Origin: Promethearchaeota archaeon
GTDB lineage: Archaea; Asgardarchaeota; Lokiarchaeia; Sigyniarchaeales; SOKP01
DNA length: 62,924 nt
Assembly: GCA_030603385.1 (NCBI GenBank)
Contig: JAUVXW010000026.1
Coordinates: 1-62,924 of the forward strand
Direction: 5' to 3'
Below the pieces are notes generated by a model, which had not been told where the DNA came from, did not search any database, and saw only the letters and a list, made by a program, of their open reading frames with translations. Made by a program: the position numbers and the translations under genes. Positions 24,295 to 56,496 of this stretch are shown here, piece after piece (the stretch's first letter is position 1; the number at the start of each line of letters is the position of its first letter).

Positions 24295-24504
24295 ATGGAT
24301 TATTCAGAAACTTTTTTTGAGATGCTTAAGGTTCTTCAACGTACTTACAGAAAGTTCCCTAAATTTATGATTGAAATTATGGCTGAAAACTACGGCATTC
24401 CCATTAAAGAGATTAAACCATTGCTAAATAAATTCAGGAAAAAAGGGATTTTGCTTATAATGAAAGACGAAGGGTATACTTTTACGTTAAATAAAAATGT
24501 TTAA
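24295..24504 (+). CDS. Small winged-helix-like protein, paralogue of the C-terminal domain of 50166..50687
   Basis: YRKFPKFMIEIMAENYGIP..E.K.L..KFRKKGIL matches YKKFPIYIIEVMADNYGIP..ELK.L..NFQKQGIL. Confidence 0.8.
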   Translation: MDYSETFFEMLKVLQRTYRKFPKFMIEIMAENYGIPIKEIKPLLNKFRKKGILLIMKDEGYTFTLNKNV

Positions 24505-29785: not shown

Positions 29786-30040
29786 ATGAATATTAGGCAA
29801 ATAGTAAATAAAAATAAAATAAGGAGAATATTGCATTCTAGAATGAGACTTCGTGAGGTCTATAGGAAAGCATACTGGTTAGAATTTGAAAATGAAAGTA
29901 TTCTGAGTTTCTTAGCTAAATATAATGTAGTGATGAGCAGGCAGGAATCTTCTTCGAATATTCCAAGGGATACAAAAGTTCAAGATTATATTAATATAGA
30001 TAACCAGCCCGAAATTGTTATTGATATAATCGAATTATAA
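29786..30040 (+). CDS. Hypothetical protein (84 aa, basic N-terminus)
   Basis: ORF preceded by the cluster promoter motif; no recognisable domain. Confidence 0.55.
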   Translation: MNIRQIVNKNKIRRILHSRMRLREVYRKAYWLEFENESILSFLAKYNVVMSRQESSSNIPRDTKVQDYINIDNQPEIVIDIIEL

Positions 30041-31548: not shown

Positions 31549-32196
31549 TTATTCTTGAAAATAATTAAAAATTGCCTGAAGAATAATATGCTTAAAGCAT
31601 TGGACTACATTCTTCCCTTGCAAAGCCTCAGCAGGATATATTACATTTGTACCGTCTGGGAATGTTTCTAATAAAGGCAACCCAAGAGCTACCTTAAATT
31701 TTGGAATACCGATAGCATTCTCTAAGTCTCGCTTGTTTAATTGTACTAAATAAGGTATGTTTTTAGGGGATGCGAAGCTCACTAACTCTCTAAAACTTCT
31801 TTTGTTCTGTTCTAATTTCTCAGGATCAGAATCACCAATAAATATAATCCCATCTGCGCCGTCTAACACATACTCTCGAGTCGACAAGAATCGTTCTTGC
31901 CCTGTACATGTTACCACATGAGCGATAATATTAAACTTGACATCTCTTAGTGTAAACTTAAATAAAAGATAGAGCGAATCTTCCCATAAGGTTCTTCCTT
32001 CTGTGGTCTCAATAGAATATCCTTTCGATAATTTTAAGAGATCGAATTTTTCCCTCAATCGAAAGAAGTTAGTTGTTTTTCCACTCTCCCCCGGACCCCA
32101 ATAAACAATCTTAAATTGAAGCATGTTCTCTGAGTCGTTAAAATCGAACTTATCACTTACTTCTAACTCACTTTCATCTTTCTGATGGGTTTCCAT
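31549..32196 (-). CDS. MglA-like small GTPase
   Basis: KIVYWGPGESGKTTN (G1), RTL (G2), TCTGQ in place of DxxGQ as in MglA TVPGQ, NKRD (G4). Confidence 0.88.
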   Translation of the reverse strand: METHQKDESELEVSDKFDFNDSENMLQFKIVYWGPGESGKTTNFFRLREKFDLLKLSKGYSIETTEGRTLWEDSLYLLFKFTLRDVKFNIIAHVVTCTGQERFLSTREYVLDGADGIIFIGDSDPEKLEQNKRSFRELVSFASPKNIPYLVQLNKRDLENAIGIPKFKVALGLPLLETFPDGTNVIYPAEALQGKNVVQCFKHIILQAIFNYFQE

Positions 32197-32779: not shown

Positions 32780-32832
32780 TTTTAGACCTATTCTATTATA
32801 TAATTAAGTTACCTAAGAGAATTGAGTAAGAG

Positions 32833-32850
32833 TATTTAAAGAAAAAAATT
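32833..32850 (-). promoter_or_regulatory. Cluster promoter motif AATTTTTTTCTTTAAATA
   Basis: 54 nt upstream of the roadblock ATG. Confidence 0.7.
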
Positions 32851-32859
32851 TAGAAAAGT

Positions 32860-33429: not shown

Positions 33430-33478
33430 AGTAAATGGGATAAAAGTAATTATATCTGAAAAAAAGTAATGCTCAATC

Positions 33479-33495
33479 TATTTAAATGAAAAAAT
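33479..33495 (-). promoter_or_regulatory. Cluster promoter variant ATTTTTTCATTTAAATA
   Basis: 50 nt upstream of the 33429 ATG. Confidence 0.55.
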
Positions 33496-33526
33496 AAATT
33501 CAATAAAAACAATCATCAGATCTACA

Positions 33527-34621
33527 CTAAATGATCTTATCCAAGGTAAGTTGTATTGATTTTGGTCTATCTTGTAACTTAAGAAAATAATCTCTACATT
33601 TCTGGTAGTTAGAGACCAACTTCTCTAAATTATTTTCTACTCGCTCTCTGTTAAGGTGATGCTCCTTGCATAATAAATCTACTACATTTGGTTTGTTAGG
33701 GAGATTCCAATAGAAATTTTCTGTTGATTTGTTCACTTCAGGAAACAGAAATATTTTTCTTACTGTTTTAATAACTTCAATAGTTAAAGTGCTAACATCA
33801 TATTTTTCATTTACTGAAGTAATGACATTTTCTATTTGTTTGTGGTTCTTGATATACTTTAAAGCTTTTTTAGGACCTATCCCCTTTATTCCTGGAAAGT
33901 AATCTGTGCCAACCAATAATGCCAAATCAACTAATTGAAATTGATTGATCTCTAATTCTTTCAAGTTTTTTCGCAAATCAACGCTCAATGGAGTTATTTT
34001 GGTATAGGTCCATTTTCCTTGAACTTTTCTTCGCAATGATTTTGAAAGATTTTGTATCATATTAGGGCATCCAAACAAAAGCGAATCAAAATCTTGAGAA
34101 TTGGAATAGTGTGCAATGCCTTCTTTTACTAGATAAGCACATTGAGATTCTGCTGAAGCTGGAGAATCTATATAAATTACTCCAAGTGCCCCAAGCAATT
34201 GCTTTGATTCCAATATGATATTTTGCCACAGATATTCTTTACTTAAAGCAATTTTTCTAGCTGCGTTCTTATCCCCGCTTTTAATTGCTTCTTCATACCA
34301 TTTCTGTGTAAATCTAAAATCATTAAGTTGATCTTTTGTAATTAACTTTTTAAGCTCAGAATCGCGACCGTCAAAACAAAAAATAGGGAATATTTTCTTC
34401 GTGTAATAGAAATTGATTCGGTAGAGAAGGCCATATAAATGCGAAATTGGTCTTTGGGTTCTGTCTAATATCAACCCAGCATAGGTGCCATCTGGATTTT
34501 TTCGAGCAAAATTGAACAAACCCATAATGATATTTGGAGCATCGATTGCGATAATTTTTCCTCCTAACGTTTGAAAATCAAGTACTTTTCGTAGTATGAT
34601 GTCTTGAAGTTTAACTCCCAT
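33527..34621 (-). CDS. fen1: Flap endonuclease 1 (divergent paralogue)
   Basis: MGV start, IDA, FDG, SQDFDSLLFG, GTDYFPGIKGIGPKKA and C-terminal PIP-like QLTLDKI. Confidence 0.9.
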   Translation of the reverse strand: MGVKLQDIILRKVLDFQTLGGKIIAIDAPNIIMGLFNFARKNPDGTYAGLILDRTQRPISHLYGLLYRINFYYTKKIFPIFCFDGRDSELKKLITKDQLNDFRFTQKWYEEAIKSGDKNAARKIALSKEYLWQNIILESKQLLGALGVIYIDSPASAESQCAYLVKEGIAHYSNSQDFDSLLFGCPNMIQNLSKSLRRKVQGKWTYTKITPLSVDLRKNLKELEINQFQLVDLALLVGTDYFPGIKGIGPKKALKYIKNHKQIENVITSVNEKYDVSTLTIEVIKTVRKIFLFPEVNKSTENFYWNLPNKPNVVDLLCKEHHLNRERVENNLEKLVSNYQKCRDYFLKLQDRPKSIQLTLDKII

Positions 34622-34643
34622 GAATTTAAATTACCTACAAAAA

Positions 34644-34660
34644 TTAATAAAGAAAAAAAA
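34644..34660 (-). promoter_or_regulatory. Cluster promoter variant TTTTTTTTCTTTATTAA (leaderless fen1)
   Basis: TATA box ends 23 nt before the fen1 ATG; may double as terminator for the upstream small ORF. Confidence 0.55.
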
Positions 34661-34683
34661 AGAAGTTGGGTAATAACTAATAA

Positions 34684-35084: not shown

Positions 35085-35202
35085 AGGTCCGATAAAACCT
35101 ATAAAAATGTATTTGGTAGCTAAAGATAAGTTGATTATACATATAAAACAATGTGTTGTTAGGATTTTCATTGCATACATATCATACATTGCAAGATAAA
35201 CC

Positions 35203-35254
35203 TATTTAAATAAAAATTTGGCTACTAATCGTTTACGTTTTTCCTTTAAAAATA
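35203..35254. promoter_or_regulatory. Back-to-back divergent cluster promoters: AAATTTTTATTTAAATA (-, 35203-35219) and TTTTTCCTTTAAAAATA (+, 35238-35254)
   Basis: Both have the T-tract upstream of the TATA box relative to their gene; there is no upstream same-strand gene to terminate. Confidence 0.6.
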
Positions 35255-35301
35255 ACGAGCTTTTTTTGACTATAATTATAAAAATTTTATGAACGAGAAA
35301 G

Positions 35302-36478: not shown

Positions 36479-36700
36479 TCAATGATAGACATGAAAATAT
36501 TTGAAACCTGTAGAGGACCCACAGAGAATTAGTAACACTACTGATCCTACGATAACACCAATCATTTTATGTCGTTGAAATTGTCCTAGAAAAAGCCATC
36601 CAATAATCCCTACAATCAATCCTAATGCTCCTACAAGAGATCCTAATGCAATTAAGAATTCAATCGACTCAGCAACAGCATCAAAATAGTCAAATATCAT
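36479..36700 (-). CDS. Small 2-TM protein, VirB2/CedA1-pilin-like architecture (tentative)
   Basis: 73 aa; two Gly-rich hydrophobic helices joined by the short basic loop QFQRHK. Confidence 0.6.
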   Translation of the reverse strand: MIFDYFDAVAESIEFLIALGSLVGALGLIVGIIGWLFLGQFQRHKMIGVIVGSVVLLILCGSSTGFKYFHVYH

Positions 36701-36724
36701 AATGTAATGCTATAATGCCAAACT

Positions 36725-36767
36725 TATATAAAGAAAAATTTGGAGTCGCAACTTTTTCCTTTAAATA
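36725..36767. promoter_or_regulatory. Back-to-back divergent cluster promoters: AATTTTTCTTTATATA (-, 36725-36740) and TTTTTCCTTTAAATA (+, 36753-36767)
   Basis: 25 nt to the 36700 ATG and 47 nt to the 36814 ATG. Confidence 0.7.
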
Positions 36768-36813
36768 TTGTGGCTATGTTAGAATTCACTAAAATTTCAA
36801 ATTTGAGATTGCT

Positions 36814-38649: not shown

Positions 38650-39891
38650 TTAGGTTTTTAATAATCCTTTCGCGTTTTTTTGCCACTCAAGAACTTTGGA
38701 CGTTGATGCACCACTTAACTTAGCGGATAAATCGCCTGGATCAGCAACTACTAACTCGTCAATCGAACTAATACCAAGAGCATGCAAACCCTCTGCTGTG
38801 CCTTTGCCAATACCTTTAACAGAAACTAATGAAACTTGTTTTGAAACTGACTCTGAATCATTATTTACGTCTGATGAAGTCTCATCTTTTTCCTCGTATA
38901 GCGTTTCGACTTCAAATTCTAATCCAGGTGATTCAGGAATCTCTACTTTGTCTGTATCTGCAATCCCTGCTGAAGTGATGAAAAATTCGCACTCTTCAGG
39001 AGGGAGATCGGGAGCATCCACAATTACAGCTCGCCTTTTTAGTGAGTTATTCGATGAAAATCCTTTAGTCTTAAACATGATTCGGAAATGGCACCCGTGG
39101 GCTACAATATTGCCGCCAATTGCATCGTTGGTTGAGAACATGCCCATCATCTTGACTGCGACTTGGTTGGTAAGCAAAACGGCACAATTATACGTCTCGG
39201 CTATCCTTGATAGTGTATGAATAATATTGTTTAAGAGGGCTTGTCGAGGCGCTAGTTTACTAATGCCTACATACTCTGCTCTTAACAATGCCATCAGACT
39301 GTCAATGATAATAAGTCGCACCCCACGAGTTTTACAGAGAGTTTCTGCTTTTTGGATCATCTGAGATTGATGATCTGAGGAGTAAATCCTAGCATGATAA
39401 ATCCGTGAGAGTGTCTCATTAGGATTTAACCCGAAACGTTTGGCAATGCGTTTGATTTTCTCTTTCGAAAATGTGTTTTCAGTATCGATATAGGCAACAG
39501 AGGTATTTAGTCCACCATTCTTCACAGAAAGTTGACTTGTAACTGATATCGTATGAGCTAATGCTGTCTTTCCCGATTTGAAAGGCCCATATACTTCGGT
39601 TAATTTTCCTGTTTGGAAGCCACCACCTAAAATTTTATTAAGCTCTGAAGATCCAGTGGTCATGAACTCCACATTCTCATCAATATCTTTTGCTTGTATA
39701 AAATCTGTCATTCCTAACGCATTCCGTGCATTCCAAATTAATTTTTTCGCAGTCTTGTCTCCTAATCCATCAATATCTGACACTATAGAACCGGGACTCA
39801 TTGCTAGGGCTTCTGCGGTGCTGATGCCGTTATCCTGAAGCAGTTTAATCTGTCGGGCGTTTATTCCTTTAATTTGACTTAAATCTGCCAT
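38650..39891 (-). CDS. radA: RadA/Rad51-family recombinase with extra C-terminal HhH domain
   Basis: HhH N-domain, FxxA (FIQA), TTGS..L..ILGGG, Walker A GPFKSGKT, YIDTENTF, Walker B LIIIDS, TNQV and GGNIVAH. Confidence 0.88.
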   Translation of the reverse strand: MADLSQIKGINARQIKLLQDNGISTAEALAMSPGSIVSDIDGLGDKTAKKLIWNARNALGMTDFIQAKDIDENVEFMTTGSSELNKILGGGFQTGKLTEVYGPFKSGKTALAHTISVTSQLSVKNGGLNTSVAYIDTENTFSKEKIKRIAKRFGLNPNETLSRIYHARIYSSDHQSQMIQKAETLCKTRGVRLIIIDSLMALLRAEYVGISKLAPRQALLNNIIHTLSRIAETYNCAVLLTNQVAVKMMGMFSTNDAIGGNIVAHGCHFRIMFKTKGFSSNNSLKRRAVIVDAPDLPPEECEFFITSAGIADTDKVEIPESPGLEFEVETLYEEKDETSSDVNNDSESVSKQVSLVSVKGIGKGTAEGLHALGISSIDELVVADPGDLSAKLSGASTSKVLEWQKNAKGLLKT

Positions 39892-39944
39892 ATCTTTTTT
39901 ACATCACCATTTTTCTGGTAATTATACTCTAAATACTACCAGTC

Positions 39945-39960
39945 TATATAAAGAAAAAAT
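39945..39960 (-). promoter_or_regulatory. Cluster promoter motif ATTTTTTCTTTATATA (radA)
   Basis: 54 nt upstream of the radA ATG, with a GGTGA SD-like sequence in the leader. Confidence 0.7.
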
Positions 39961-39963
39961 AAG

Positions 39964-40078
39964 AGTTAAAAAAGAGTGATAAAACCAAAAATTTAGGAGG
40001 AAGGGGGCTAAAGTAGGGGATATGGATATATTCGAACTCTAAACACGGGGAATATAGGTTTATAACTCTTTTTTAACT
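39964..40078 (-). ncRNA. Candidate ~115-nt hairpin sRNA with ~22-bp closing stem and C-rich interior
   Basis: Inverted repeat 39964-39986 / 40057-40078; promoter motif at 40101-40115 placed about 23 nt upstream on the minus strand. Confidence 0.45.
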
Positions 40079-41189: not shown

Positions 41190-41897
41190 TTAGAAAAAAA
41201 AAAACCCGTGATTGTCTAACTGAAAGAACAGGGATGCGATTTTTTTTCCTATCTCAATTACCATTTCCCTATCCTTAGAAATTAGTGACTTTCTCAAAAA
41301 AATATTCACACTTTTAATCCTTTTATATAACGAGTGAAAAAACGGAAGTGTTTTCTGTAATTTGACATTAAAAGAAACTTCATGGAGTAGAATTAACGTG
41401 ATATTCTCCCGCTGACATCGTAATATAAGAGGACATAGGATATTATCAAAGATATCCTCCAAGATAGAGGTTCTCTTTCTGATATCGTCAACCTTAGAAA
41501 TCTTAAAACGTAGATGGTGTGAGATATTATCTATTACAATGAACCTTAAATCAGGAGGGAAAAGAAAGTTTTCATTTACCATTTTTCCAAGTAAATTATT
41601 TTGTTCTGAATATGAGGGAAAAACCTTACTTGGAGTAATGTATAAATTATTTAGTAAATAATCGCACTTCTTATTCTGATCCTGACACATCGAAACTAAT
41701 CTATTTTTAGGAAATGGTTCACTTGCTTGAATCCAGAAACAACTACCTTTATAGACATCGCCGATTGCTAACGATTGGCTGACTAAAAAGAGAGCTAAAG
41801 AGGTTTTCCCTGTTCCAGACTCTCCTGAAATGGATATTACTGAATTATGCTGAAGAATTTTTTCAAATCCTTGTAAAACTACGTCTTGAAAAGTCAT
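41190..41897 (-). CDS. RadB/XRCC-like RecA-fold ATPase
   Basis: Walker A GESGTGKT, Walker B FIVIDN, E.FP..RL motif; no N-terminal HhH domain. Confidence 0.75.
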   Translation of the reverse strand: MTFQDVVLQGFEKILQHNSVISISGESGTGKTSLALFLVSQSLAIGDVYKGSCFWIQASEPFPKNRLVSMCQDQNKKCDYLLNNLYITPSKVFPSYSEQNNLLGKMVNENFLFPPDLRFIVIDNISHHLRFKISKVDDIRKRTSILEDIFDNILCPLILRCQRENITLILLHEVSFNVKLQKTLPFFHSLYKRIKSVNIFLRKSLISKDREMVIEIGKKIASLFFQLDNHGFFFF

Positions 41898-42257: not shown

Positions 42258-43034
42258 TTACTCCTCATAATCCATATAATATCGTTCAACCATTTCGGGT
42301 TTGAAGCGCCTTCTGATAAGCCTTCTCCTTCTAATTTTAGAGGGAATTCTTCCTTTACGATAGCGAATTTTGTTTATAAGGATACCTAACGAAATGAACG
42401 AGTATTTTAAGATAATATAGCAAAAAATGATGATAAAATAATAGAAAAATTCATAGGAAAAGATAATATTAAAACTTCCAACCAATAACCAAGATATCAA
42501 AAAAGAAAGGATTACGAGAAAAATCTGATATTGACCATGTTGAGGATCATTCTGATATGAAAACTTGAGAAAAAAAAGATCTCCTCTTGAGGGAGATAAG
42601 GTTATAAAAATCGACACAATACAAATCCCAGAAATAATGCGGGCAATGGGATCAAAGATCGGATTAAATACCACCTTAAGCAGAAAATAGATTATCCATG
42701 TTCCAAAAATTAATGGAGCAAAACTTGTTAAAAATCCTTGTAAGAGGGTCATCTGATAGGGATGTAATGGAGTTACTGAACCATGAGGAGATGCTTTTGA
42801 CGAATTTTCGTCCCGATACTTGACTCTTAAGTTATGAGAAGGAACACCAACTAAAAGATCCATTAGGCGATGCGATACTTCATGCACAATGACACCTACA
42901 AAAAATATAAGGTTTATTATGGTATTTCCAATGCTTCCAAAATCAGTTGACAACAATAATTTTTCACTTATATACCCAATAGCATAGACAAACGGGAAAA
43001 TTGTAAGAGCTATAAGTAACACTTCTCCAAACAT
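42258..43034 (-). CDS. Membrane metalloprotease-like protein (M50/site-2-protease-like)
   Basis: HEVSH (HExxH) at the end of a TM helix, FAPL, SPSRGD; about 6 TM; Arg-rich tail. Confidence 0.65.
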   Translation of the reverse strand: MFGEVLLIALTIFPFVYAIGYISEKLLLSTDFGSIGNTIINLIFFVGVIVHEVSHRLMDLLVGVPSHNLRVKYRDENSSKASPHGSVTPLHPYQMTLLQGFLTSFAPLIFGTWIIYFLLKVVFNPIFDPIARIISGICIVSIFITLSPSRGDLFFLKFSYQNDPQHGQYQIFLVILSFLISWLLVGSFNIIFSYEFFYYFIIIFCYIILKYSFISLGILINKIRYRKGRIPSKIRRRRLIRRRFKPEMVERYYMDYEE

Positions 43035-43055
43035 ATACTTTTATGAAATTATTCA

Positions 43056-43071
43056 TATTTAAAGAAAAATT
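43056..43071 (-). promoter_or_regulatory. Cluster promoter motif AATTTTTCTTTAAATA (leaderless)
   Basis: TATA box ends 22 nt before the 43034 ATG. Confidence 0.72.
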
Positions 43072-43354
43072 TCTGAAGGAGAATTTATGATCAATTTATG
43101 ATGAAATTTGTTACTACATTATTTTTCTTCGTGATCACTAAAATTTTAATACTCAACCGAATAGCCTAATTCTTATATGATGGAAAACTTATGACTAAAC
43201 GGGCACTATTTCTAGATGTTATTATATCACCTTCGATGGTTTTTATATGTACAAAAATGTCACTGCGAGTCGAAATGAAAAAAGTGGGGTTTTTATACTT
43301 TTAGTCAATTTGTGATCGAGGTGTAGACGAGCTCTACTTACAAATTCCGATCCC

Positions 43355-43373
43355 AACCGATAGCTTTAAAAAG
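43355..43373 (+). promoter_or_regulatory. Canonical archaeal BRE-TATA (AACCGATAGCTTTAAAAAG) of the divergent tfb
   Basis: CCGA-type purine-rich BRE directly before TTTAAAA, about 56 nt upstream of the ATG. Confidence 0.6.
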
Positions 43374-43428
43374 CAAACACCGTCACAAAGTTTTCTTAGT
43401 AAAAAGAAAAAATAGTGATCAAAAAAAA

Positions 43429-44655
43429 ATGACGATATACAAAACCTCAGTTACATTAGATCATACAAATCTAAAATGTGATTTGTGTGGTTCTGACGAT
43501 ATTGTTGAGACTGTTGAAGGTTATGTGTGTAGGGCATGTGGAATTGTCCAAACTCTACAAAAACTTCAATATGATCAACCATACAAAGCAGATGTACTAC
43601 AATATGCACGAAGATTAGGAAGTACACAATTAGGGAATAAGAGAGAACGGTTGGGCTCCCCTCATTCTAGAGTCTTAAAGCGAATGAGTAAGTACAACAA
43701 GATAAACGACAATGAAAAAATTGTTTATACTAAGGCATATAGGGAGATTTCAAGAATCCTTTGCAGTTTAGGTCTGGAAGATTATAATTCCCTTAAAGAA
43801 ATGACTATGGTTAATTTTAAAGAAATACGAGCTAAATTAAGAGCAGGCTCAAAATACAGGAATGTAGAGAAGCTTGTTGCTATCATTCTATATTTTAGGT
43901 TCAAAATTGATAATATCTCAGTGACAAATACCGATATATTTGAGAACACAGAACTAACCAAAAAAGAATTTAATGACTTCTTTATGCAAGTTCGCGATTA
44001 CGTTCCTAATTATCTGATAAGAGATAGACAAAAATATATCTCCCAGAAATTGTTAGAGATTACCAATCATTTTGGGCTTGAGATGCCCTATTATTTTCTC
44101 GCAAAGAAGGTTTTGTATCGTCTCTGGGAAGGTATTAAAAACACTACAGATAATGTCATAGCAGGATTGTGTGCGTCAATTACAGCCCTCTGTGAGTATA
44201 AAGAACAAGTTAGAATAAGTTCAATTTGTGAATTGGTCAATATTAGGATGAGTACTATCCAGCTTCAGGTTAAAAAGAAAATTTTTGAAAGGTTTGGGAT
44301 TCTAGGATTCTCAACTTTGGTACATTCTGCCGATTTATTAAAAAAGTTTTTAGTAAAAATCGGGCTGATAGAAGACAAAGAACCTGACATCGAATTGATT
44401 TCAGAAGAAGTAGAAGATGATGATATTATTCATGTTCAATTAGGAAATGCAGTTCAGATATTTAATCCATCAAATGAGCATTATCTTTTTGAAAGTTTTG
44501 ATCAAAATGGAACGATTACCTACATATACCTTGAGGTATATAATCATACTAATACCAAGACTAAATTTAAGAAAAAGTCAAAGACAAATGGTGTATGGTT
44601 TAAGCTAGGTCTTGAGGAATATTTTCCATATAAGGGACCTCCGGTAACCATTTGA
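43429..44655 (+). CDS. tfb: Divergent transcription initiation factor TFB/TFIIB paralogue with C-terminal extension
   Basis: Zn ribbon CDLC..VCRACGIV, two cyclin-like repeats and an extra domain of about 100 aa. Confidence 0.8.
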   Translation: MTIYKTSVTLDHTNLKCDLCGSDDIVETVEGYVCRACGIVQTLQKLQYDQPYKADVLQYARRLGSTQLGNKRERLGSPHSRVLKRMSKYNKINDNEKIVYTKAYREISRILCSLGLEDYNSLKEMTMVNFKEIRAKLRAGSKYRNVEKLVAIILYFRFKIDNISVTNTDIFENTELTKKEFNDFFMQVRDYVPNYLIRDRQKYISQKLLEITNHFGLEMPYYFLAKKVLYRLWEGIKNTTDNVIAGLCASITALCEYKEQVRISSICELVNIRMSTIQLQVKKKIFERFGILGFSTLVHSADLLKKFLVKIGLIEDKEPDIELISEEVEDDDIIHVQLGNAVQIFNPSNEHYLFESFDQNGTITYIYLEVYNHTNTKTKFKKKSKTNGVWFKLGLEEYFPYKGPPVTI

Positions 44656-44731
44656 CTATGATCAAAAGTAAGACCACAGGTAATATATATAGTATATATG
44701 TAGCATAAGTTTTTCTCTTTTTTTTCTCTCT

Positions 44732-44748
44732 ATTTTTTTCTTTAAATA
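44732..44748 (+). promoter_or_regulatory. Cluster promoter motif ATTTTTTTCTTTAAATA
   Basis: About 40 nt upstream of the 44785/44794 start. Confidence 0.7.
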
Positions 44749-44784
44749 TACCGAGTTATATTTTATAGAAGTTAACAATTAAAC

Positions 44785-47403: not shown

Positions 47404-47408
47404 TTCCA

Positions 47409-47424
47409 AATTTTTTCTTTTTAT
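47409..47424 (+). promoter_or_regulatory. Cluster promoter variant AATTTTTTCTTTTTAT (leaderless)
   Basis: About 24 nt before the 47448 ATG; could also be a terminator. Confidence 0.45.
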
Positions 47425-47447
47425 TTATTTAACTCTAGAATCTTATA

Positions 47448-48050
47448 ATGGTGTTACATAGTAGTTCAGATAGCGTATTGCGTAATAGGAATTTATTACA
47501 GGTATTACATCAGATACTAGATGTATTAAGTAAATTTGCGAAGAATTATAACAAAAGACTTAATTTCAGTAAATTCGCAAGTTATCTCAAATTAAATCCA
47601 TCGGAAGTAGAAGAAATAATCTTTTTACTTCTAGATTTTCAAGAACTCTATGAAACCACCCTCAACAAATATTCTTTAAAAAAGAGAATCAACAATAATC
47701 AAGTTTATTTAGTTACGGAGAAAATTCAGAAGCTAAATAGCATACCACTTAAAATAAGGATGTCCCAATCCCACATTAATCAATTCAATGACATAATTTA
47801 TTTTTTTAAACATGTAAAACGAGGGAAGGGGTTTGACGTACAAACCAATGGCACGGATTTACTAAAGAATGTAAAAGAGCTATGTGATTTTTATCCATAT
47901 TGTTTTCAAGAGCAGCAAAATGGACTAGTATATCCTTCTAAATTTGGATTAAAACTAGGAGAATTATTACTCTCCTATAAGAAAAGTAATAAAAATATCA
48001 AAAAAATAGATATCGAGGAAACACAAATAGTAGTGGACAGCTGTGAGTGA
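47448..48050 (+). CDS. Hypothetical protein, possible winged-helix domains
   Basis: LNFSKFASYLKLNPSEVEEII is HTH-like; C-terminal YPSKFGLKLG is wing-like; coupled to hef. Confidence 0.6.
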   Translation: MVLHSSSDSVLRNRNLLQVLHQILDVLSKFAKNYNKRLNFSKFASYLKLNPSEVEEIIFLLLDFQELYETTLNKYSLKKRINNNQVYLVTEKIQKLNSIPLKIRMSQSHINQFNDIIYFFKHVKRGKGFDVQTNGTDLLKNVKELCDFYPYCFQEQQNGLVYPSKFGLKLGELLLSYKKSNKNIKKIDIEETQIVVDSCE

Positions 48051-50163
48051 GACGTCTGAAGACAAACTAGCATTAAAATCCGATAAATTAGAGTTTCGGA
48101 AATATCAGGTTGAGATTGCAAGTAAATGTGTGAATAAGAACTCGTTAGTTGTATTACCCACAGGGCTAGGAAAAACAATCATCGCGGTACTCATAGCAAG
48201 TAAGACATTAGAATTCTTTCCTGAAGAGAGTAAAATAATTATATTAGCCCCTACACGTCCCTTAATAAACCAACATTATGATACATTTAGCAATTTCCTA
48301 CAAGTCCCTCAGGAGAAGTTTGTAGTACTCACAGGCAAAGTTCTTCCTGAGAAACGAATTGAGTTATATGAAGATAATCAAATTTTGTTTTATACTCCTC
48401 AAACGCTGAGAAATGACTTAGTGAATCGAAGATATACCTTAGAACATACAGCTCTTATTATATATGATGAAGCTCATCATGCATCTGGCGATTATGCATA
48501 TACGATGATTGCTGACGAGTATGCGGAACAAAATCCGGATGGAGTGACGCTTGCACTCACCGCTTCCCCGGGAGCATCAAAAAAGAGAATTCAAGAATTA
48601 TGTGAAAATCTCCATATCCCATTAGAAAATATTCATATTAGGACTCGAAAAGACAGCGATGTGAAGACATACATCAAACCAATGAATATATATAAGATTG
48701 GAGTGAATCTTACAGAATTAATGGAAGAAGTATACTCTGCGGTAATTGTTGTACTAGAAGAGCGATTACACTACCTTTCACAGCTTAGTTTCATTGACAC
48801 TAAATCTGATGTACTACATCATAAAGTATTCCGAAAAGATTTATTAAGATTAAATAAGGAATTAGTTGCTATGATACAAGGGAGTGGAGATAAGACTGGG
48901 CTATACAGCGCTTTATCGATAAATGCTCAAGCGTTAATCCTATATCATATGATAGAGCTTATCGAACAACAAGGACTCGATGTTCTCTTATATTACTTAG
49001 AAAAGCTCTATACTGACGCAAAAAAGAAAAGCAGCTCAAAAGCTGTAAAAATCTTAGCTTCTGATTCGAGAATCCGTCGTAATTTTATTGAATTGAAAAA
49101 GAACCAAGATTTTACGCCTGAAAAACTTATACATCCTAAATATCACATTTTACAAAAAGTGTTGGTAGATGAATTATCCCAAAATCCTAATTCTCGCATA
49201 CTGGTCTTTGTAAAATTGCGTGACTCACTAAAGAACATCGTGGAAAGACTTGGAGAAATAGAAATTATAAAACCAGTACGATTTGTTGGGCAAGCTACTA
49301 AATCTAGTGAAGATAAAGGAATGTCTCAAAAAATCCAGATTGAAACTTTAGATCGGTTTAAGAAAGGCGTGTATAATGTGCTGGTATCTACAAACGTGGG
49401 GGAAGAAGGTTTAGATATCGCGGAATGTGATTTAGTAGTATTTTACGATGTGGTAGCATCTGAAATCCGCTTAATTCAAAGAAAAGGTAGAACAGCTCGA
49501 CATCGAGAAGGAAAAGTTATAATTTTATACTGTAAAGGGACCCATGATGAGATTTATCTTAGAATTGCTTTGAGTAAATTAAAGAAAATGAATGTCAACC
49601 TTAAAAAACCTCAGCAGCTTGCAGAACCAGAACCGATTTATAGTAATCAAATTGGTAAAATTGAAGAAAAAGTCTCTAAGCCATCATTAAAGCGACAACA
49701 TCAAGTTAATTTACATTCTTTTATTGATACCTCCCCTCTAGATGACGTTTTGGAAAAAGAAGAGGATTCTTCTGAAGTTAAAATAAGTAAACTTCTACCC
49801 ATGAAATTCGGCATACGTAAGAAACTGCAGAAAGATAAAATTGATTTTGCTATTGTTGATACAGACCTTCATATTGTCTTATTTAATAGAGTGTTAATTC
49901 AAGTATATGATCCAAGAAAAACTACTGATAATTTATTTATTACAGAAATTCAGGATTTTTCAGAGATTTGTGAATTATTTATCCTCATCTTTGATTTTGT
50001 AGATTTTGAAGTACAAACACCAGGAGAAAAACGAATTTTAAAAAAAAAAATTCAAGAGTTAAAACAAGAGTATAATTTTCAATTCATTCCTGTTGAAAAT
50101 GAAGAAGAACTCTATTTTATTATGAAAAGTATTTTAGAAAGCCCATCAGGGAGGGGTTTATAA
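48043..50163 (+). CDS. hef: Hef/FANCM-family DEAH helicase with degenerate C-terminal ERCC4-like domain
   Basis: LPTGLGKT, DEAHHASGDYAY, LTASPG, RFVGQA, EEGLDI and QRKGRTAR motifs. Confidence 0.9.
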   Translation: MSETSEDKLALKSDKLEFRKYQVEIASKCVNKNSLVVLPTGLGKTIIAVLIASKTLEFFPEESKIIILAPTRPLINQHYDTFSNFLQVPQEKFVVLTGKVLPEKRIELYEDNQILFYTPQTLRNDLVNRRYTLEHTALIIYDEAHHASGDYAYTMIADEYAEQNPDGVTLALTASPGASKKRIQELCENLHIPLENIHIRTRKDSDVKTYIKPMNIYKIGVNLTELMEEVYSAVIVVLEERLHYLSQLSFIDTKSDVLHHKVFRKDLLRLNKELVAMIQGSGDKTGLYSALSINAQALILYHMIELIEQQGLDVLLYYLEKLYTDAKKKSSSKAVKILASDSRIRRNFIELKKNQDFTPEKLIHPKYHILQKVLVDELSQNPNSRILVFVKLRDSLKNIVERLGEIEIIKPVRFVGQATKSSEDKGMSQKIQIETLDRFKKGVYNVLVSTNVGEEGLDIAECDLVVFYDVVASEIRLIQRKGRTARHREGKVIILYCKGTHDEIYLRIALSKLKKMNVNLKKPQQLAEPEPIYSNQIGKIEEKVSKPSLKRQHQVNLHSFIDTSPLDDVLEKEEDSSEVKISKLLPMKFGIRKKLQKDKIDFAIVDTDLHIVLFNRVLIQVYDPRKTTDNLFITEIQDFSEICELFILIFDFVDFEVQTPGEKRILKKKIQELKQEYNFQFIPVENEEELYFIMKSILESPSGRGL

Positions 50164-50165: not shown

Positions 50166-50687
50166 ATGGAAGACGCCACCTGGAAAAAAGATGAGACACC
50201 TTATCTAATATTTGAATGTGCGAAATGTAAACAATATCTCTATGTAAAAGCAACGCAGAAAGGGAAGAAATGTTTACGATGTGGTCGCACACATACAGTC
50301 TCAACCATTATTAATACTGGAGAGTTTGTTAATGGAATAACTGCTGCGGTAGAAATGGTGAAAAAAAGACAAGACGAGTTTGGAAAAAAAGAATTAGGGC
50401 ATACACCTGAATTCAGAGCATTTGGGGATTTTACGGTGGCTGTTAAAAAACTGAAGGATATAGCAGTTAATGGTGATGAATCTAGTGAAGACACAACTAG
50501 GCAATTTAGAAAAATGTTATTTGAGATTTCTGCGATGTATAAGAAATTCCCGATCTATATTATCGAAGTCATGGCAGATAATTATGGAATACCTGCTTCT
50601 GAACTAAAGAATTTAGCAAAAAACTTTCAGAAACAAGGAATTTTAATCCGATTAGACGATTATTCCTATACTGTGAAAATGAAGTAG
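50166..50687 (+). CDS. DUF1922-like zinc ribbon fused to a winged-helix-like domain
   Basis: YLIFECAKC...KKCLRCGR; C-terminus paralogous to 24295..24504. Confidence 0.7.
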   Translation: MEDATWKKDETPYLIFECAKCKQYLYVKATQKGKKCLRCGRTHTVSTIINTGEFVNGITAAVEMVKKRQDEFGKKELGHTPEFRAFGDFTVAVKKLKDIAVNGDESSEDTTRQFRKMLFEISAMYKKFPIYIIEVMADNYGIPASELKNLAKNFQKQGILIRLDDYSYTVKMK

Positions 50688-50965: not shown

Positions 50966-51229
50966 CTATTCTTTTAGTTTATATTTTAATTTCTTAAGGT
51001 ATAGCTTCATGAAATATCGTTCACTATTACAAAACTCTAACTTTTCTTTTTCGTTTAAGTTTAAGCAGTTTAAGAGAATTGCATGAATTTTTTCGAGAGA
51101 AATTAGATTTTCATCGCAAATCTCTTCTACTTTTTCCGATTCAGATAGTTCCTTAATTTTAATGTTTTCTCGATTTGATGGTTTCTCTGTAGAAAACTTA
51201 CCATTTCGAGATTTACTTTTTAAATCCAT
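50966..51229 (-). CDS. Small hypothetical protein
   Basis: 87 aa, with its own cluster promoter 27 nt upstream. Confidence 0.6.
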   Translation of the reverse strand: MDLKSKSRNGKFSTEKPSNRENIKIKELSESEKVEEICDENLISLEKIHAILLNCLNLNEKEKLEFCNSERYFMKLYLKKLKYKLKE

Positions 51230-51255
51230 GAATCAATACAATAATGATTAAATTG

Positions 51256-51273
51256 TATTTAAAGAAAAAAATT
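51256..51273 (-). promoter_or_regulatory. Cluster promoter motif AATTTTTTTCTTTAAATA (leaderless)
   Basis: Identical to the 32833-32850 copy. Confidence 0.7.
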
Positions 51274-51281
51274 GAGAATAA

Positions 51282-51619: not shown

Positions 51620-54163
51620 TTATCTTTTTCCAATAATTTTTTTACATAAATTTATTCCCAAACCTGTTTTCTGATTTAGCGTATAGGGGTTTTCCTTTTT
51701 AACTTGAGATGCGGTATGGTTTCCGGCTTTGTAAAGGACCCTTGCTCGTACTCGCGCAACGTTATCTAAACGTAATACTAAGTCAAATAATTCCTCACGA
51801 ATCCCATAATGTATCCGTATCCGAAGCGTTTCTGACATTTCGGCAACCTTTTCTAACCTGTTACGAATATCAAACCCGCTTGAACTTAGGTTGTTTGCAA
51901 TTATCCCAATAAAGGTAATAATTCTCTCTAAACTATCTCGTACAGAAAAAAGATCACCTGTCATTATGTGATATCTTTCTAAGATATGTTCAATCGGCTC
52001 CTCATCTGTCCATTCAAGAATAGGCTCTAACATCTTATAGTCACGTACTCGAAATTCCGATTTTAACACTTCATAGGCTTCCTTAATTAAATCCCGAAAA
52101 GAGGTTATATTTGTATTCTCTAATTTATATCGAATGAGTACACCTGAAGAAGGATATAGATAGAGCCTAATTATTAGTTTTCCAAACTGGGAGCATTGTA
52201 TTGAGCCGTTATTATTCTTTAATATTAACCCTTTTTCAAACAAGTAATTTAGGATATATTGGTTCTTAATACTTTTTGGAATAATATCTTCAACATATTT
52301 TTGGATATTTACATCAGGAAATTTGATTAAATACAAAAGGAACATGGTAATATGGTCGCAAAATTCAAAGGCAAACTCGTTCTCAACTGCAAAATTATCG
52401 GATATACCATTTTGAAATCCGCAAGAACATTTAATTCCAGTATCAATATCGAATTGACATGAATAGACTCCAAAAGTAGTCTTAACATAGCCCGAAAGGT
52501 TTGAGTTACTACATTTTGTTATTTTAATCTGAGGTTTTTTACTTCTAAGTGTTTGTACTTTTTTCGGATCGGCATGAAGCTTAAGAATATTGACAGGAGA
52601 TATCTCTTTAATCATTAATAACTGCTCAATTGGGATTTGTTGGTCTTTCATCTTATGAGTAATTGTATACCAAAAGTACGTTTTTTCAAAGAAATTCTTG
52701 AGTTTATCCATTGTAATTTCTTGCTCTTCAAATACCCGAAGTAGTACTTGTTCTTTTAAAATATTAATTTTGTTTAATCCAGAAGTGAGATCATTGTATT
52801 TAGCCATGAGTGGACTATTCATCTGGAGTGATTTAAAGTAGTGATCCTCAACCCACATCTTCTCTTCTATGTTCTTTACTAACATAATCCCATAGCCGAC
52901 TGAGTCCAATCCCGGTCTACCCGCCCTCCCTAAGATTTGAAAAACTTCGTTTGATGAGAATGGCTTGAAATAGGAAAATCCATCGCCATTCTCATAGTAT
53001 CCTGAAAAGTTTTTTATATTAAATCCGGATGTGGTATACTTTTTAAAGTCTCGTAAAATAACAACACGGGCAGGTGTGTTGATTCCTGCTGAAAGTGTAG
53101 TCGTACAACATATAACTCTAATAAGCTTACTACGGAAATTATCCTCTATTAATTTTCTTTCGCGTGAAAGGAGGCCAGCATGATGAAACGCGACTCCATG
53201 GGAAAATATCTTACTCAATTCAAGGTTTCCTCCCTTAATCGATGCGATACGCTTAGAGAGCGCTTTTAACACTTTTAACTCAGATTCTTCTAAAAATTTC
53301 TTTACTATTTCCTTAAGATTTTGAGCAGACTGTTGTGCCGTCTTACGCTTATTTAGAAAGATAAGCACTTGTCCTTTATCGTTAAGGGTAGTCTTTACGA
53401 TATGTTTGATAGTAGAGTCTTTATTTTGTGTGGTGTGAATTTTATAATGAAGTGGTACAGGTCTTTCCTCAGATATCACCAAGGTAGTATGGTTCCCAAG
53501 TGATGTGAGCCATGCATTAAAGAACTCTGGATTCGCAATTGTGGCACTTAACCCAATTATTTGAGGGTGGTGAAAGAATTCATTCAATCGTACAATGAGA
53601 GATTCCAAACGAGGTCCTCTGTCTGATTCTCCGATGATATGGACCTCATCAATAATGATTGTAGAAAACTCAGAAATCCACTCCTTATCATAGAAGTTCC
53701 TTATGATCGAATCCATTTTTTCATAGGTAGTAACGATAATGTCAGCTTTTTCAAGTTTAGAATCGTCTATGTTATAATCTCCAATAGATATTTCTACTTT
53801 TACACCATATTTTCCATAGGCTTTTTTGAAGTGGAAGAATTTCTCAGTAGCTAATGCTTTAAAGGGCACTAAATATACAGATTTGCCGAACTTCTGAAAC
53901 ACATTATTTACCGCGCATAATTCACCAATGAGAGTTTTCCCACTACCAGAGGGGGCACATACTAAAAACGATTTGCGAAAAAATAGTCCTTTCCGTATGG
54001 CTTCTTTTTGAATTTCGCGTAGTTCAAATATCTTGTTTTCAAATAATACCCGAAGAATGCGCTTATCTGGAATATATTTATAAATTTCAGTTTCTTCTAA
54101 AGTCTCCTCTTTTGTACCTTTCCCAGTAAAATCGATTAAACTCATATCTATGGGTATAGACAT
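51620..54163 (-). CDS. hel308: Hel308/Ski2-like DExH helicase with inserted SWIM zinc finger (true start possibly 54145)
   Basis: APSGSGKT, DEVH, GLSAT, FHHAGL, TLSAGINTPA and QILGRAGRPG motifs; CSC...CDH insert; C-terminal RVRARVLY HhH. Confidence 0.85.
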   Translation of the reverse strand: MSIPIDMSLIDFTGKGTKEETLEETEIYKYIPDKRILRVLFENKIFELREIQKEAIRKGLFFRKSFLVCAPSGSGKTLIGELCAVNNVFQKFGKSVYLVPFKALATEKFFHFKKAYGKYGVKVEISIGDYNIDDSKLEKADIIVTTYEKMDSIIRNFYDKEWISEFSTIIIDEVHIIGESDRGPRLESLIVRLNEFFHHPQIIGLSATIANPEFFNAWLTSLGNHTTLVISEERPVPLHYKIHTTQNKDSTIKHIVKTTLNDKGQVLIFLNKRKTAQQSAQNLKEIVKKFLEESELKVLKALSKRIASIKGGNLELSKIFSHGVAFHHAGLLSRERKLIEDNFRSKLIRVICCTTTLSAGINTPARVVILRDFKKYTTSGFNIKNFSGYYENGDGFSYFKPFSSNEVFQILGRAGRPGLDSVGYGIMLVKNIEEKMWVEDHYFKSLQMNSPLMAKYNDLTSGLNKINILKEQVLLRVFEEQEITMDKLKNFFEKTYFWYTITHKMKDQQIPIEQLLMIKEISPVNILKLHADPKKVQTLRSKKPQIKITKCSNSNLSGYVKTTFGVYSCQFDIDTGIKCSCGFQNGISDNFAVENEFAFEFCDHITMFLLYLIKFPDVNIQKYVEDIIPKSIKNQYILNYLFEKGLILKNNNGSIQCSQFGKLIIRLYLYPSSGVLIRYKLENTNITSFRDLIKEAYEVLKSEFRVRDYKMLEPILEWTDEEPIEHILERYHIMTGDLFSVRDSLERIITFIGIIANNLSSSGFDIRNRLEKVAEMSETLRIRIHYGIREELFDLVLRLDNVARVRARVLYKAGNHTASQVKKENPYTLNQKTGLGINLCKKIIGKR

Positions 54164-54172
54164 TTTAAAATA

Positions 54173-54187
54173 ATATAAAGGAAAAAG
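54173..54187 (-). promoter_or_regulatory. Cluster promoter variant CTTTTTCCTTTATAT
   Basis: Only 10 nt from ATG 54163 but 28 nt from ATG 54145, which favours the second Met as a leaderless start. Confidence 0.55.
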
Positions 54188-54236
54188 TCAAATAAAATTC
54201 TTTATTTTGAGTTGTATTTGAAATTAAGGTAAAAAG

Positions 54237-54350: not shown

Positions 54351-54433
54351 AGTTTAATTTTACTTTGTTAAATTAAGACAAAAAATTCCTGTCTTCTAGT
54401 TATGAATAAGACATTAAACAATTTAAATTTCAC

Positions 54434-54449
54434 ATTTTTTCTTTATAAA
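54434..54449 (+). promoter_or_regulatory. Cluster promoter motif ATTTTTTCTTTATAAA (leaderless, heads the 54.5-62.2 kb operon)
   Basis: 29 nt before ATG 54478. Confidence 0.7.
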
Positions 54450-54468
54450 CGATCATTTTTAATAATAT

Positions 54469-56496
54469 TTGATAGTTATGACGGTTCTAGAAAATGAGAT
54501 CAGTAGGAAGAAAAACACATTAGGATCATATTATGAAGAAGCAAAAAAAGCTATAGCAGCACAAAATATCGAGCAGGCAATTGATTTAACCGAAAGAGGA
54601 CGCATACAAGCCGAACTGGAAAATGATTATGAATGGGTTCAGAGATTTAACTCGTTTAATTCGGCAATTAAAAAAAACCCATTACTAAGTACTACTATAG
54701 TGAAAGAGGATATAACAAAAATAAAAGGTGTTGGACCCTCTGTAGCACAAAAATTGCGAGAGCATGGATTTGATACGATTGAAACGCTTGTAAGATCGAC
54801 TATACCTCAATTATCAAGTATAAAAGGAATTGGACCAGTAACAGCCCATAAAATAGTAGAAGGAGCTATATCGCTCACATCCCATAAAAAATTAAACGAT
54901 TTTCCTCAACCAGATGATAAATCAGAAGAAACTCCTGTTCATGAAGAAATTGAAGAATACAATCAAGAAGATTATAATAAAATTATAAAAGAAATGAGAC
55001 CACAAAAATGGTTTTCTGATAAATATAAACGACTTAAAACCGGAGTCTGGTACAATCCACAGAAACAAAATTCCGTCCAAAAATCTAAAATGGCATCTAA
55101 GGAATCTGGAAATTTCCCCCAAATTAATAAGAAAACTAGCCAACATATTACCCCTACTATACATGAAGAATTTGTTGATTTTGAGGATGTAGAAGATGTT
55201 GAAGATAAAGAAGAGTTTACCAAAATACCAGATGTTGCGCTAAGTTCTCCTAAGTTAACATTCATAGAAGAGATACCATTAGTAGTCAAACAAAAAGATA
55301 TTCAGCCATTACAGAAACTAAAAACTATTCAAGATGAGAAAATAGATCATTCTGAAAGACAAACAATTGAAAATCAGGTTGTGCAAATCTTCCAAAAATA
55401 TGACTATAATATTATTAAACAAACTCCACTTTTGAAAGATATTTTTACCCATGCCGATGTGGTTGCGGTAAAAAAAGCTGATTTTAACGATGTATTAGAT
55501 TTCGTTATAATTATTCCATTAAAGCTAAATAGCCTTAAAGGAGAATTACAAGTCTCAAGTGAAACGATTAAGTATGTTCCTAACCATCAACAATTTAAAG
55601 AAAATGGTTCAGCGTTTAAAATGCTACTTGATTCATATTTTGATACTATACAAGAAAGCCATAAGACCATTCATCATGATCTCATAAATAAAGGTAATTT
55701 CTATTCTTACATAAAACGCCATTTTGGGATAAATATCACAATTAAAAAAACGTTGACACGTAAGAACTTATTTTTTACAGAAGGTAATATGCAATTAAAA
55801 GTGCTTATAGAACCAGTATTATTGTGTCAAAATGATGTCGGATTTTTAGAAAAAGACATTCCGTTTGCATATCTCAGCGATATAAACCTTCATATCATCA
55901 AAGAGAATAATCTTTCTGATTTTGTACATTTCATAGAGCAGAAATATATCTTATTAGAAACACATCGTAAACAAAATCATTCATTAATATCCTATAATGA
56001 ATCATACGACCAATTTCTAAAACGTTCTACAATTCTTTCCATCCCATTTATAGGATTTGGCGTTGTACTTCTCTTTCTGATATTATTTCAATCATTTGAA
56101 ACAATGAAATTTCTTATTAATATTGGATATGCACTTCTTGGAGTTTTCTTTATATCAATACCATTCTTCTATATGAAAGTGTTGAAACCGAGATTAGAGA
56201 TCCAAGCTGAATTCTTCAATCCTTATTGCCAAAAAGAATCTCAACTAGATGAGACGAGTTTAGTATTAATTAATGAAAAGTTTTCTCCTGAGATGATGTC
56301 GCAATTTGGGTATGAATGCTTAGGAAAACATCATCAGTCTAAAGTAATTATGCAAATTGAACAGGATCAGATTAAAGAAAGTATTGATCAAAATAGATTA
56401 TTGACTAAGGTTAAAAATGGCGGATTTTTTGAAAAAGAGATTCCAGAGAAAAATAAAGATTTCATAAACAGATATGGATCATTTTTAGAGGATTAA
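54469..56496 (+). CDS. Membrane-anchored HhH DNA-binding protein with degenerate PD-(D/E)xK-like domain (likely start 54478)
   Basis: IKGVGPSVAQKL..IKGIGPVTAHKI; disordered linker; IENQV..ADVVAVK..IIPLK; two TM helices near the C-terminus. Confidence 0.72.
   Translation: MIVMTVLENEISRKKNTLGSYYEEAKKAIAAQNIEQAIDLTERGRIQAELENDYEWVQRFNSFNSAIKKNPLLSTTIVKEDITKIKGVGPSVAQKLREHGFDTIETLVRSTIPQLSSIKGIGPVTAHKIVEGAISLTSHKKLNDFPQPDDKSEETPVHEEIEEYNQEDYNKIIKEMRPQKWFSDKYKRLKTGVWYNPQKQNSVQKSKMASKESGNFPQINKKTSQHITPTIHEEFVDFEDVEDVEDKEEFTKIPDVALSSPKLTFIEEIPLVVKQKDIQPLQKLKTIQDEKIDHSERQTIENQVVQIFQKYDYNIIKQTPLLKDIFTHADVVAVKKADFNDVLDFVIIIPLKLNSLKGELQVSSETIKYVPNHQQFKENGSAFKMLLDSYFDTIQESHKTIHHDLINKGNFYSYIKRHFGINITIKKTLTRKNLFFTEGNMQLKVLIEPVLLCQNDVGFLEKDIPFAYLSDINLHIIKENNLSDFVHFIEQKYILLETHRKQNHSLISYNESYDQFLKRSTILSIPFIGFGVVLLFLILFQSFETMKFLINIGYALLGVFFISIPFFYMKVLKPRLEIQAEFFNPYCQKESQLDETSLVLINEKFSPEMMSQFGYECLGKHHQSKVIMQIEQDQIKESIDQNRLLTKVKNGGFFEKEIPEKNKDFINRYGSFLED

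Follow-up and report, generated by a model that had tools for sequence, protein, structure and literature searches.

A divergent TFB paralogue and a T-run promoter class in a gene island of Lokiarchaeia: a possible promoter-specific initiation factor

Background

Haloarchaea and Thermococcales encode several paralogues of the general transcription factors TFB and TBP per genome, with partly distinct regulons, and archaeal TFB paralogues are known to split regulons. To our knowledge, the haloarchaeal and Thermococcales TFB paralogues keep the canonical helix motif and pass the family thresholds, and no separate class of B recognition element (BRE) with a matched helix change has been established among them; we likewise know of no demonstrated case in which a TFB paralogue pairs an altered BRE-reading helix with a BRE class of its own. 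The present study concerns a gene and a set of promoters from a Promethearchaeota archaeon (Lokiarchaeia), found in a contig of 62,924 nucleotides (nt; JAUVXW010000026.1) that was analyzed as a whole and is called the window. The gene (43429-44655, plus strand) encodes a divergent TFB paralogue, for which the label TFBL is used, and the promoters carry a run of T residues in the BRE position (T-run promoters). Tentatively, and somewhat short of an even chance, TFBL is read here as an alternative-sigma-like switch for the T-run promoters of the surrounding gene island, on the grounds of their co-location and the position of the element. No paper on the TFBL family was found in the literature.

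Canonical TFB and TFIIB are represented by the P. woesei TFB core (PDB 1D3U, 1AIS; TBP-BRE-TATA complex). TFBL has the same parts in the same order, namely a Zn ribbon, a segment resembling the reader/linker, and two cyclin repeats. It differs in its low identity (~14%, below the Pfam and NCBIfam thresholds), in having S, Q, and Q for V, R, and R in the recognition helix, in a shorter reader/linker, and in ~90 amino acids (aa) of extra C-terminal domain; it is also lineage-restricted and coexists with six canonical TFBs. A TFIIB core with an added C-terminal part, serving one promoter class, is known from Brf1, Brf2, and Rrn7/TAF1B, to which the core and tail of TFBL are comparable, but no similarity of the tails was detected and the TFBL host has one RNA polymerase only.

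In the Sulfolobales, TFB3 and its UV/DNA-damage regulon (PMC6101594, PMC5817253) likewise tie a TFB paralogue to DNA-transaction and membrane genes. The damage-regulon promoters resemble the T-run promoters in having a weak BRE and a T-rich, C-terminated, non-palindromic element just upstream, although the Sulfolobus A(N)TTTC element is found farther upstream than the BRE, at -44 to -39, and the T-run takes the place of the BRE. TFB3 is without a DNA-binding domain and works alongside TFB1-TBP (PMC5817253); TFBL, in contrast, is full length, with both cyclin repeats and the helix-turn-helix (HTH), and is not a truncated TFB of the TFB3 type. The cell-cycle factor TFB2 of Sulfolobus acidocaldarius is, like TFBL, a full-length paralogue; it has a defined gene set and is itself regulated. 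Its promoters have a BRE like that of TFB1 promoters but space it differently from the TATA box, and its targets include the tfb2 gene itself (bioRxiv 10.64898/2026.09.06.749720), whereas the promoter of the TFBL gene is unlike those that TFBL is proposed to read. By analogy, TFBL would be most like TFB3 or TFB2 in function. Extra TFBs encoded by Asgard viruses and mobile elements are thought to redirect host transcription (bioRxiv 10.1101/2021.07.29.453957; PMC13700489); the context of TFBL, by comparison, is chromosomal and syntenic.

TFBL as a member of the TFB/TFIIB superfamily

A sequence-only reading of the window had placed a divergent TFB gene at 43355-44655 and had described an altered HTH in the second cyclin repeat and an extra C-terminal domain of ~100 aa. 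The gene and all of the described elements were located there, with the correction that 43355 is the start of the promoter and the coding sequence begins at 43429. Curated sequence thresholds were not reached by TFBL: it was unmatched by Pfam TFIIB (PF00382) at E<=1, its Pfam matches were weak Zn-ribbon ones only (Zn_Ribbon_TF, E 0.29), and it scored 18.8 bits with the NCBIfam TFIIB model (PRK00423; cut-off 384). PF00382 detected six ordinary TFBs elsewhere in the same 3.9-Mb genome. A phmmer search with TFBL against PDB sequences found nothing, and the family profile reached the first repeat of TFIIB at E 0.008, no better.

An AlphaFold2 model was built from 36 relatives and had a predicted local distance difference test score (pLDDT) of ~85-92 across residues 100-310. 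The top structural match was the P. woesei TFB core 1d3u_B (Z 17.4, root-mean-square deviation 2.9 over 196/201 residues; Foldseek, VIA-align), and the top 40 matches were all TFIIB, TFB, or Brf. Foldseek E values for TFIIB and TFB were 9e-8 to 1e-4; the Brf1 and Brf2 cores were matched at Z 13-15.6, below TFB/TFIIB. When the TFBL profile was compared with a profile of the six TFBs of its own genome, hhalign gave 97.4% probability and E 9e-12 over a span from the Zn ribbon to the HTH. Because of the 1d3u_B fold match and the profile match to the six own TFBs, TFBL was placed in the TFB/TFIIB superfamily, and this fold and profile comparison supports well its assignment as a complete, very divergent member. 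Both cyclin-fold repeats and the four-Cys N-terminal Zn ribbon of the family are present. TFBL is not a chance open reading frame (ORF), because more than 170 clusters of homologues share invariant Cys and helix residues.

Residues C17, C20, C34, and C37 of the Zn ribbon showed no variation across 36 family members. The segment aligned by hhalign to the B-reader and B-linker is ~25 residues shorter than in canonical TFB and of low identity (aligned pairs: RPY with RAY/F, TQIG with GLST.I, RL.KYN with RL.KWQ), and it is strongly conserved within the family at Y48, P51, T66, G69, E73, and R74. The ribbon and the reader-like segment rank among the best-conserved parts of TFBL. The conserved Cys4 and reader/linker region suggest that contact with RNA polymerase may be retained. 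The pLDDT was low over the reader/linker region, which was modeled as disordered, as would be expected for a segment that becomes ordered only within RNA polymerase.

The canonical TFBs of the genome are 296-323 aa long, and TFBL extends ~90 aa beyond them. In the tail, an acidic linker leads into four predicted beta strands and then a conserved K-G/D-P-P end, of which the PP is invariant in the family; the extra domain of the sequence-only reading thus stands as a predicted four-stranded beta domain of ~90 aa. A fold search with the tail alone gave matches at Z<=4.5 only (best Z 4.5), so that phage coat proteins, Pur-alpha, and WRKY were dismissed as relatives, and an ESM Atlas search with the tail gave no usable match.

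Recognition helix

Profile-profile alignment set IRMSTIQxQVK of TFBL against VTEVTLRSRxK of the six canonical TFBs of the genome, all of which keep VTEVT(L/V)R. The canonical VTEVT-L/V/I-R-x-R motif is absent from TFBL: the HTH is present and reads IRMSTIQLQ. S275, Q278, and Q280 of TFBL face the invariant V299, R302, and R304 of its own canonical TFBs, and S275, Q278, Q280, and V281 are invariant in the TFBL family alignment. In human TFIIB, V283 and R286 at the corresponding helix positions make the base contacts with the upstream BRE (BREu). The alteration of the HTH that had been claimed from the letters is thus borne out, and a DNA-reading surface that is both different from the canonical one and conserved appears well supported, as judged from the aligned residues.

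The same features bear on an improbable alternative, in which TFBL would not initiate but would engage TBP, RNA polymerase, or promoters by its ribbon and cyclin core as a decoy or brake, with its C-terminal domain tying it to a recombination or membrane partner encoded nearby. With the canonical DNA-contact residues gone, BRE reading could have been lost rather than changed, and the shortened reader/linker, the extra domain with its invariant PP tail and no fold match above Z 4.5, and fast evolution (within-genus identity of 43-49% for TFBL vs 75-78% for RadA) agree with such a role. However, the substituted positions of the helix hold polar residues (S, T, Q, Q) that do not vary, as would be expected if this surface still read DNA, and the good conservation of the ribbon and the reader-like segment likewise speaks against a decoy or brake.

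T-run promoters around TFBL

The consensus of the T-run promoters is (CTC)nAA-T5-7-C-TTTAWATA, and ~14 of them are found at 32-56 kb of the window (Table 1). The T-run abuts the TATA box directly, in the BRE position and in a fixed register with the conserved C. According to PMC5817253, a BRE is strong when positions -3 and -6 relative to the TATA box are occupied by A and a purine, respectively; in the T-run promoters, both positions are T. The strict form T5-C-TTTAWAWA occurs in 39 copies in the 3.9-Mb genome, nine of which lie within 31 kb around TFBL (0.31 expected).

A T-run matrix was trained on this window alone and all genes of the window were scored with it. The unit leaders at 32-56 kb scored 12.7-25.6, all except o200 at 14 or more; the high-scoring leaders were those of o182, o189, the FEN1 paralogue, o116, o120, o105, the RadA paralogue, o258, o872, o200, the Hel308-like helicase, and the helix-hairpin-helix (HhH) protein. 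Within the same block, the unrelated ECH and PEMT scored -5.5 and 1.0, respectively. The NAD-ligase and all genes at 1-31 kb also scored below 8. The distances from the TATA box to the start codon cluster near 27-30 nt and 54-61 nt, which may fit a mixture of leaderless and leadered transcripts. In relatives, a T6-N-TTTAWATA promoter precedes the o872 orthologues in 12 loci.

Small ORFs (60-87 aa) were noticed behind high-scoring T-run promoters at 29786-30040 (+), 36479-36700 (-), 50966-51229 (-), and 24298-24480 (+). The last of these resembles the DUF1922 zinc-ribbon protein encoded at 50166-50687.

The promoter of TFBL itself

The promoter of the TFBL gene is of another type. Its sequence is AACCGATAGCTTTAAAAAG (43355-43373), with the TATA box TTTAAAAA at 43365-43372, 64-65 nt upstream of the ATG, and a Shine-Dalgarno-like GTGATC 8 nt upstream of the ATG. 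Relative to its TATA box, position -3 is A and position -6 is G, a purine; with the T-run matrix, this promoter scored -2.4, against 14-25 for the neighboring promoters. The layout GGAAAAGG-TTTAAAA-nCAAACTCCTnCC followed by TAGTGATC recurs upstream of TFBL orthologues in at least 10 loci. In the whole genome, only a slight A excess was seen next to TATA-like sites and a sharp general BRE could not be derived; the term canonical for the TFBL promoter therefore rests on the -3 A/-6 purine rule and on the orthologues. On these grounds, the earlier claim that TFBL is driven by a canonical promoter, not by one of the T-tract type, holds.

Between the TATA box and the expected start site, the element CAAAC(T/A)CC(T)nCC is conserved at 43374-43395 and in the orthologous loci. 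This CAAACTCC element is operator-like and may be a site for a regulator. A whole-genome search for TTTAAAA-n-CAAAC..CC promoters found no second copy and no regulon.

Distribution and synteny

At 90% identity, the TFBL family falls into more than 170 clusters, and at 50% it has 318 representatives; nearly all are ~410 aa long and come from Lokiarchaeia-type metagenome bins. Most are named "hypothetical", and a few are auto-annotated as TFIIB/Brf1-like. The distribution was scored in species-representative Asgard genomes. TFBL was found in 76/102 genomes of the family to which the window belongs (f1), weak TFBL-like proteins of ~25% identity in 4/10 genomes of the sister family (f2), and none in 26 further Asgard families (124 genomes). 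Only in f1 was the strict motif more frequent than its reversed control.

The gene order RadA / RadA-like ATPase-o112-o258 <-> TFBL-o872-o200-helicase-DUF1922 / Hel308-like is kept in 14 loci of at least six genera. Matches to the T-run matrix at the syntenic loci stand before the radA, o258, and o872 orthologues, at a density of 8.5 to 36x the background of the respective genome. That TFBL belongs genetically to the island is well supported.

A very improbable alternative is a viral or mobile-element origin, with the TFBL gene as remnant or passenger and the island as an integrated element with its own promoter dialect. TFB homologues are indeed encoded by Asgard viruses and mobile elements (bioRxiv 10.1101/2021.07.29.453957; PMC13700489), some relatives have 4-6 TFBL copies (G041, G075, G060, G027), and several relatives with fairly complete genomes do not have the island. 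Moreover, two short ORFs elsewhere in the genome of the window (G000:C38:33551-33823 (-) and G000:C3:88935-89234 (-)) match TFBL partially, one in the C-terminal beta domain and the other in part of cyclin repeat 1, and are probably remnants of decayed paralogues. Against a mobile origin, no TFBL relative was found in the 2.9 million viral contigs of IMG/VR, and no integrase, tRNA, or capsid genes were found nearby. The gene order is also stable over at least six genera, with a divergence parallel to that of the neighboring genes, and the TFBL gene is located inside the chromosome in a closed 3.3-Mb genome.

The multicopy genome G041 has four full-length TFBL copies on contigs C23, C56, C36, and C22; the one examined (L041) lies outside the usual synteny. 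A looser version of the island with a 411-aa TFBL-like gene (~25% identity) was seen in the closed f2 genome G106 (L108/L109, G106:C1:1722000-1761999), where promoters of the form T8-10-G(C)-TTTTATAA precede the o182 and o1260 orthologues.

Does TFBL read the T-run promoters?

Reading of the T-run by TFBL is the most economical mechanism for these observations. TFBL would form a TBP-TFBL-RNA polymerase initiation complex, its Ser/Gln helix would prefer the oligo-T/A element, and the factor would act like an alternative sigma factor for the island. A housekeeping TFB would read the promoter of TFBL itself, the expression of which would probably be gated by a regulator at the conserved CAAACTCC element. 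The narrower proposal, a promoter-class-specific initiation factor with a Ser/Gln helix that reads oligo-T instead of a purine BRE and switches on a recombination, repair, and membrane island, is somewhat unlikely as specified. The cascade proposed in the sequence-only reading, from housekeeping TFB to TFBL to T-tract promoters, is supported in part, by the co-location of TFBL with the T-run promoters; it would also fit the two promoter types, and one genome without TFBL, G072, speaks against it.

The chief rival explanation assigns the reading of the T-run to the general machinery or to another factor. TFBL would be a genuine TFB-type factor and the T-run promoters would not be its private targets; they would be read by a canonical TFB with a TBP paralogue, by another DNA binder of the island, or through A/T-tract shape, and TFBL would serve other promoters or tune the island. 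This account is possible, though doubtful. Six canonical TFBs and four TBPs are available in the genome, in which the general BRE is weak, so that many promoters may work without a strong one. In Sulfolobus, the T-rich A(N)TTTC element was ascribed to an unknown regulator, not to a TFB helix (PMC5817253). The rival is countered by the T-run and conserved C at a fixed register against the TATA box, the exact site of the TFB helix. Furthermore, all six canonical TFBs retain the VTEVT(L/V)R motif, and TFBL is the sole factor with a changed helix and the only transcription-factor homologue recognized in the island.

Several observations weigh against TFBL as the reader, and some of them favor the rival directly. 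The link between TFBL and the T-run comes from their neighborhood, which is common to any gene borne by the island, and good T-run promoters elsewhere in the genome precede unrelated genes (amidohydrolase, DHDPS, thioesterase, and Fe-S proteins). Helix position 278 varies (Q, H, N; Y in f2) with the T-run unchanged, so that helix and promoter do not covary cleanly. In the sister family, too, such covariation was not robust: the TFBL-like helix of G106 reads ASTVYSH and its promoters are those given above, and in G089 the promoter before radA is T9-C-TTTTAAATA.

Genomes that lack TFBL and still carry the motif had been named in the sequence-only reading as a refutation of its claim. In G072, a 99%-complete assembly, o258 and o872 are adjacent on contig C31 with no TFBL between them, and a search of the whole assembly at E<=0.01 found no TFBL homologue; even so, T-run promoters are retained before o258, o872, the HhH gene, o224, o105, o120, and the helicase. 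This counter-evidence was graded as moderate, because G072 is a metagenome bin in which the island radA is missing too, and the TFBL gene could lie in unassembled DNA. G030, also 99% complete and without TFBL, carries a T-run promoter ahead of o872, on a contig that breaks off 430 nt upstream. Most of the other TFBL-minus genomes were uninformative, since the contig ends at or beside the TFBL position (G034, G062, G067, G040, G037, G050, G086), and others were also without the island RadA. Whole-genome motif/control ratios for the 14-mer motif were ~1.7 in same-genus TFBL-plus genomes, ~1.3 to 1.4 in TFBL-minus f1 genomes, and ~0.8 outside f1, values too noisy to decide. The co-occurrence that had been suggested as a check stands where TFBL is present, synteny and motif recurring with it in 14 loci, and fails in G072, which keeps the motif without TFBL.

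If TFBL does read the T-run promoters, a single TFB paralogue would activate an Asgard-archaeal island made up of spare recombination, repair, and membrane genes, and the entire spare recombination gene set would be run from one private general factor. TFBL would then stand as the archaeal equivalent of an alternative sigma factor, and it could serve as a model for the origin of gene-class-specific TFIIB-like factors (Brf, Rrn7). If the link to TFBL fails, the T-run promoter class still requires a reader.

The metagenome contigs of the seven genomes listed above and of G030 repeatedly end at or beside TFBL. Together with the conservation of TFBL, which is much lower than that of its neighbors, these breaks suggest strain-level hypervariability or repeats at this spot.

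Gene content of the island

The 32000-62000 part of the window is a block of spare DNA-transaction genes mixed with genes for membrane and unknown proteins (Table 1). Two more RadA genes, another FEN1, and other helicase paralogues are found elsewhere in the genome.

Table 1. Features of the TFBL gene, T-run promoters, and island genes in the window. Scores are those of the T-run matrix.
Feature	Position	Strand	Details
Own promoter and 5' leader of TFBL	43355-43428	+	purine-type BRE (..GATAGC), TATA, CAAAC(A/T)CC, GTGATC
TFBL coding sequence	43429-44655	+	single open frame, 408 aa and stop
Zn ribbon	43477-43539	+	residues 17-37, CxxC-x13-CxxC
Segment aligned to B-reader and B-linker	43555-43713	+	residues ~43-95
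Two cyclin-fold repeats	43726-44358	+	residues ~100-310
HTH of cyclin repeat 2	44212-44277	+	residues 262-283, RISSICELVNIRMSTIQLQVKK; recognition helix MSTIQLQV
Extra C-terminal domain	44386-44652	+	residues ~320-408
T-run promoter, o182 / Arf-like GTPase / o448 unit	32829-32853	-	score 24.2; TATA 61 nt before start codon
T-run promoter, o189	33475-33499	-	score 18.8
T-run promoter, FEN1 paralogue	34640-34664	-	score 18.9; TATA at -30
T-run promoter, o116	35199-35223	-	score 18.9
T-run promoter, o120	35232-35256	+	score 16.7
T-run promoter before 73-aa ORF 36479-36700	36721-36745	-	score 24.7
T-run promoter, o105-o341 unit	36747-36771	+	score 22.7; recurs before o105 orthologues
T-run promoter, RadA paralogue	39941-39965	-	score 24.9; conserved before radA orthologues in 7 same-genus loci
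T-run promoter, o258 / o112 / RadA-like ATPase unit, divergent from TFBL	43052-43076	-	score 14.3; conserved before o258 orthologues
T-run promoter, o872	44728-44752	+	score 25.6, the best in the genome; 75 nt past TFBL stop
T-run promoter, o200 / helicase (706 aa) / DUF1922 unit	47405-47429	+	score 12.7
T-run promoter before 87-aa ORF 50966-51229	51252-51276	-	score 25.4
T-run promoter, Hel308-like helicase (847 aa)	54168-54192	-	score 17.8
T-run promoter, HhH protein (675 aa) unit	54429-54453	+	score 21.5
Arf-like GTPase	31549-32196
FEN1 paralogue	33527-34621		FEN1 domains found
RadA paralogue	38650-39891		~100-aa C-terminal extension
RadA/KaiC-like ATPase	41190-41897
Superfamily-2 helicase	48043-50163
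Superfamily-2 helicase	51620-54163
HhH protein	54469-56496

A reading of the island as a defence system was set aside, since in PADLOC the two helicases showed no more than generic helicase similarity (HamB, Cas3) and TFBL had no match. The conserved divergent neighbor of TFBL, o258 (42258-43034, -), spans the membrane several times and carries an HEVSH (HExxH-like) motif; it may be a membrane metalloprotease. The six canonical TFB and four TBP genes make up a large set of general-factor paralogues for a genome of 3.9 Mb. Outside the island, a bacterial-type NAD-dependent DNA ligase with LigA adenylation, OB, HhH, and BRCT domains is encoded at 24582-26492 (-); it has no T-run promoter and is the only copy found in this Asgard genome.

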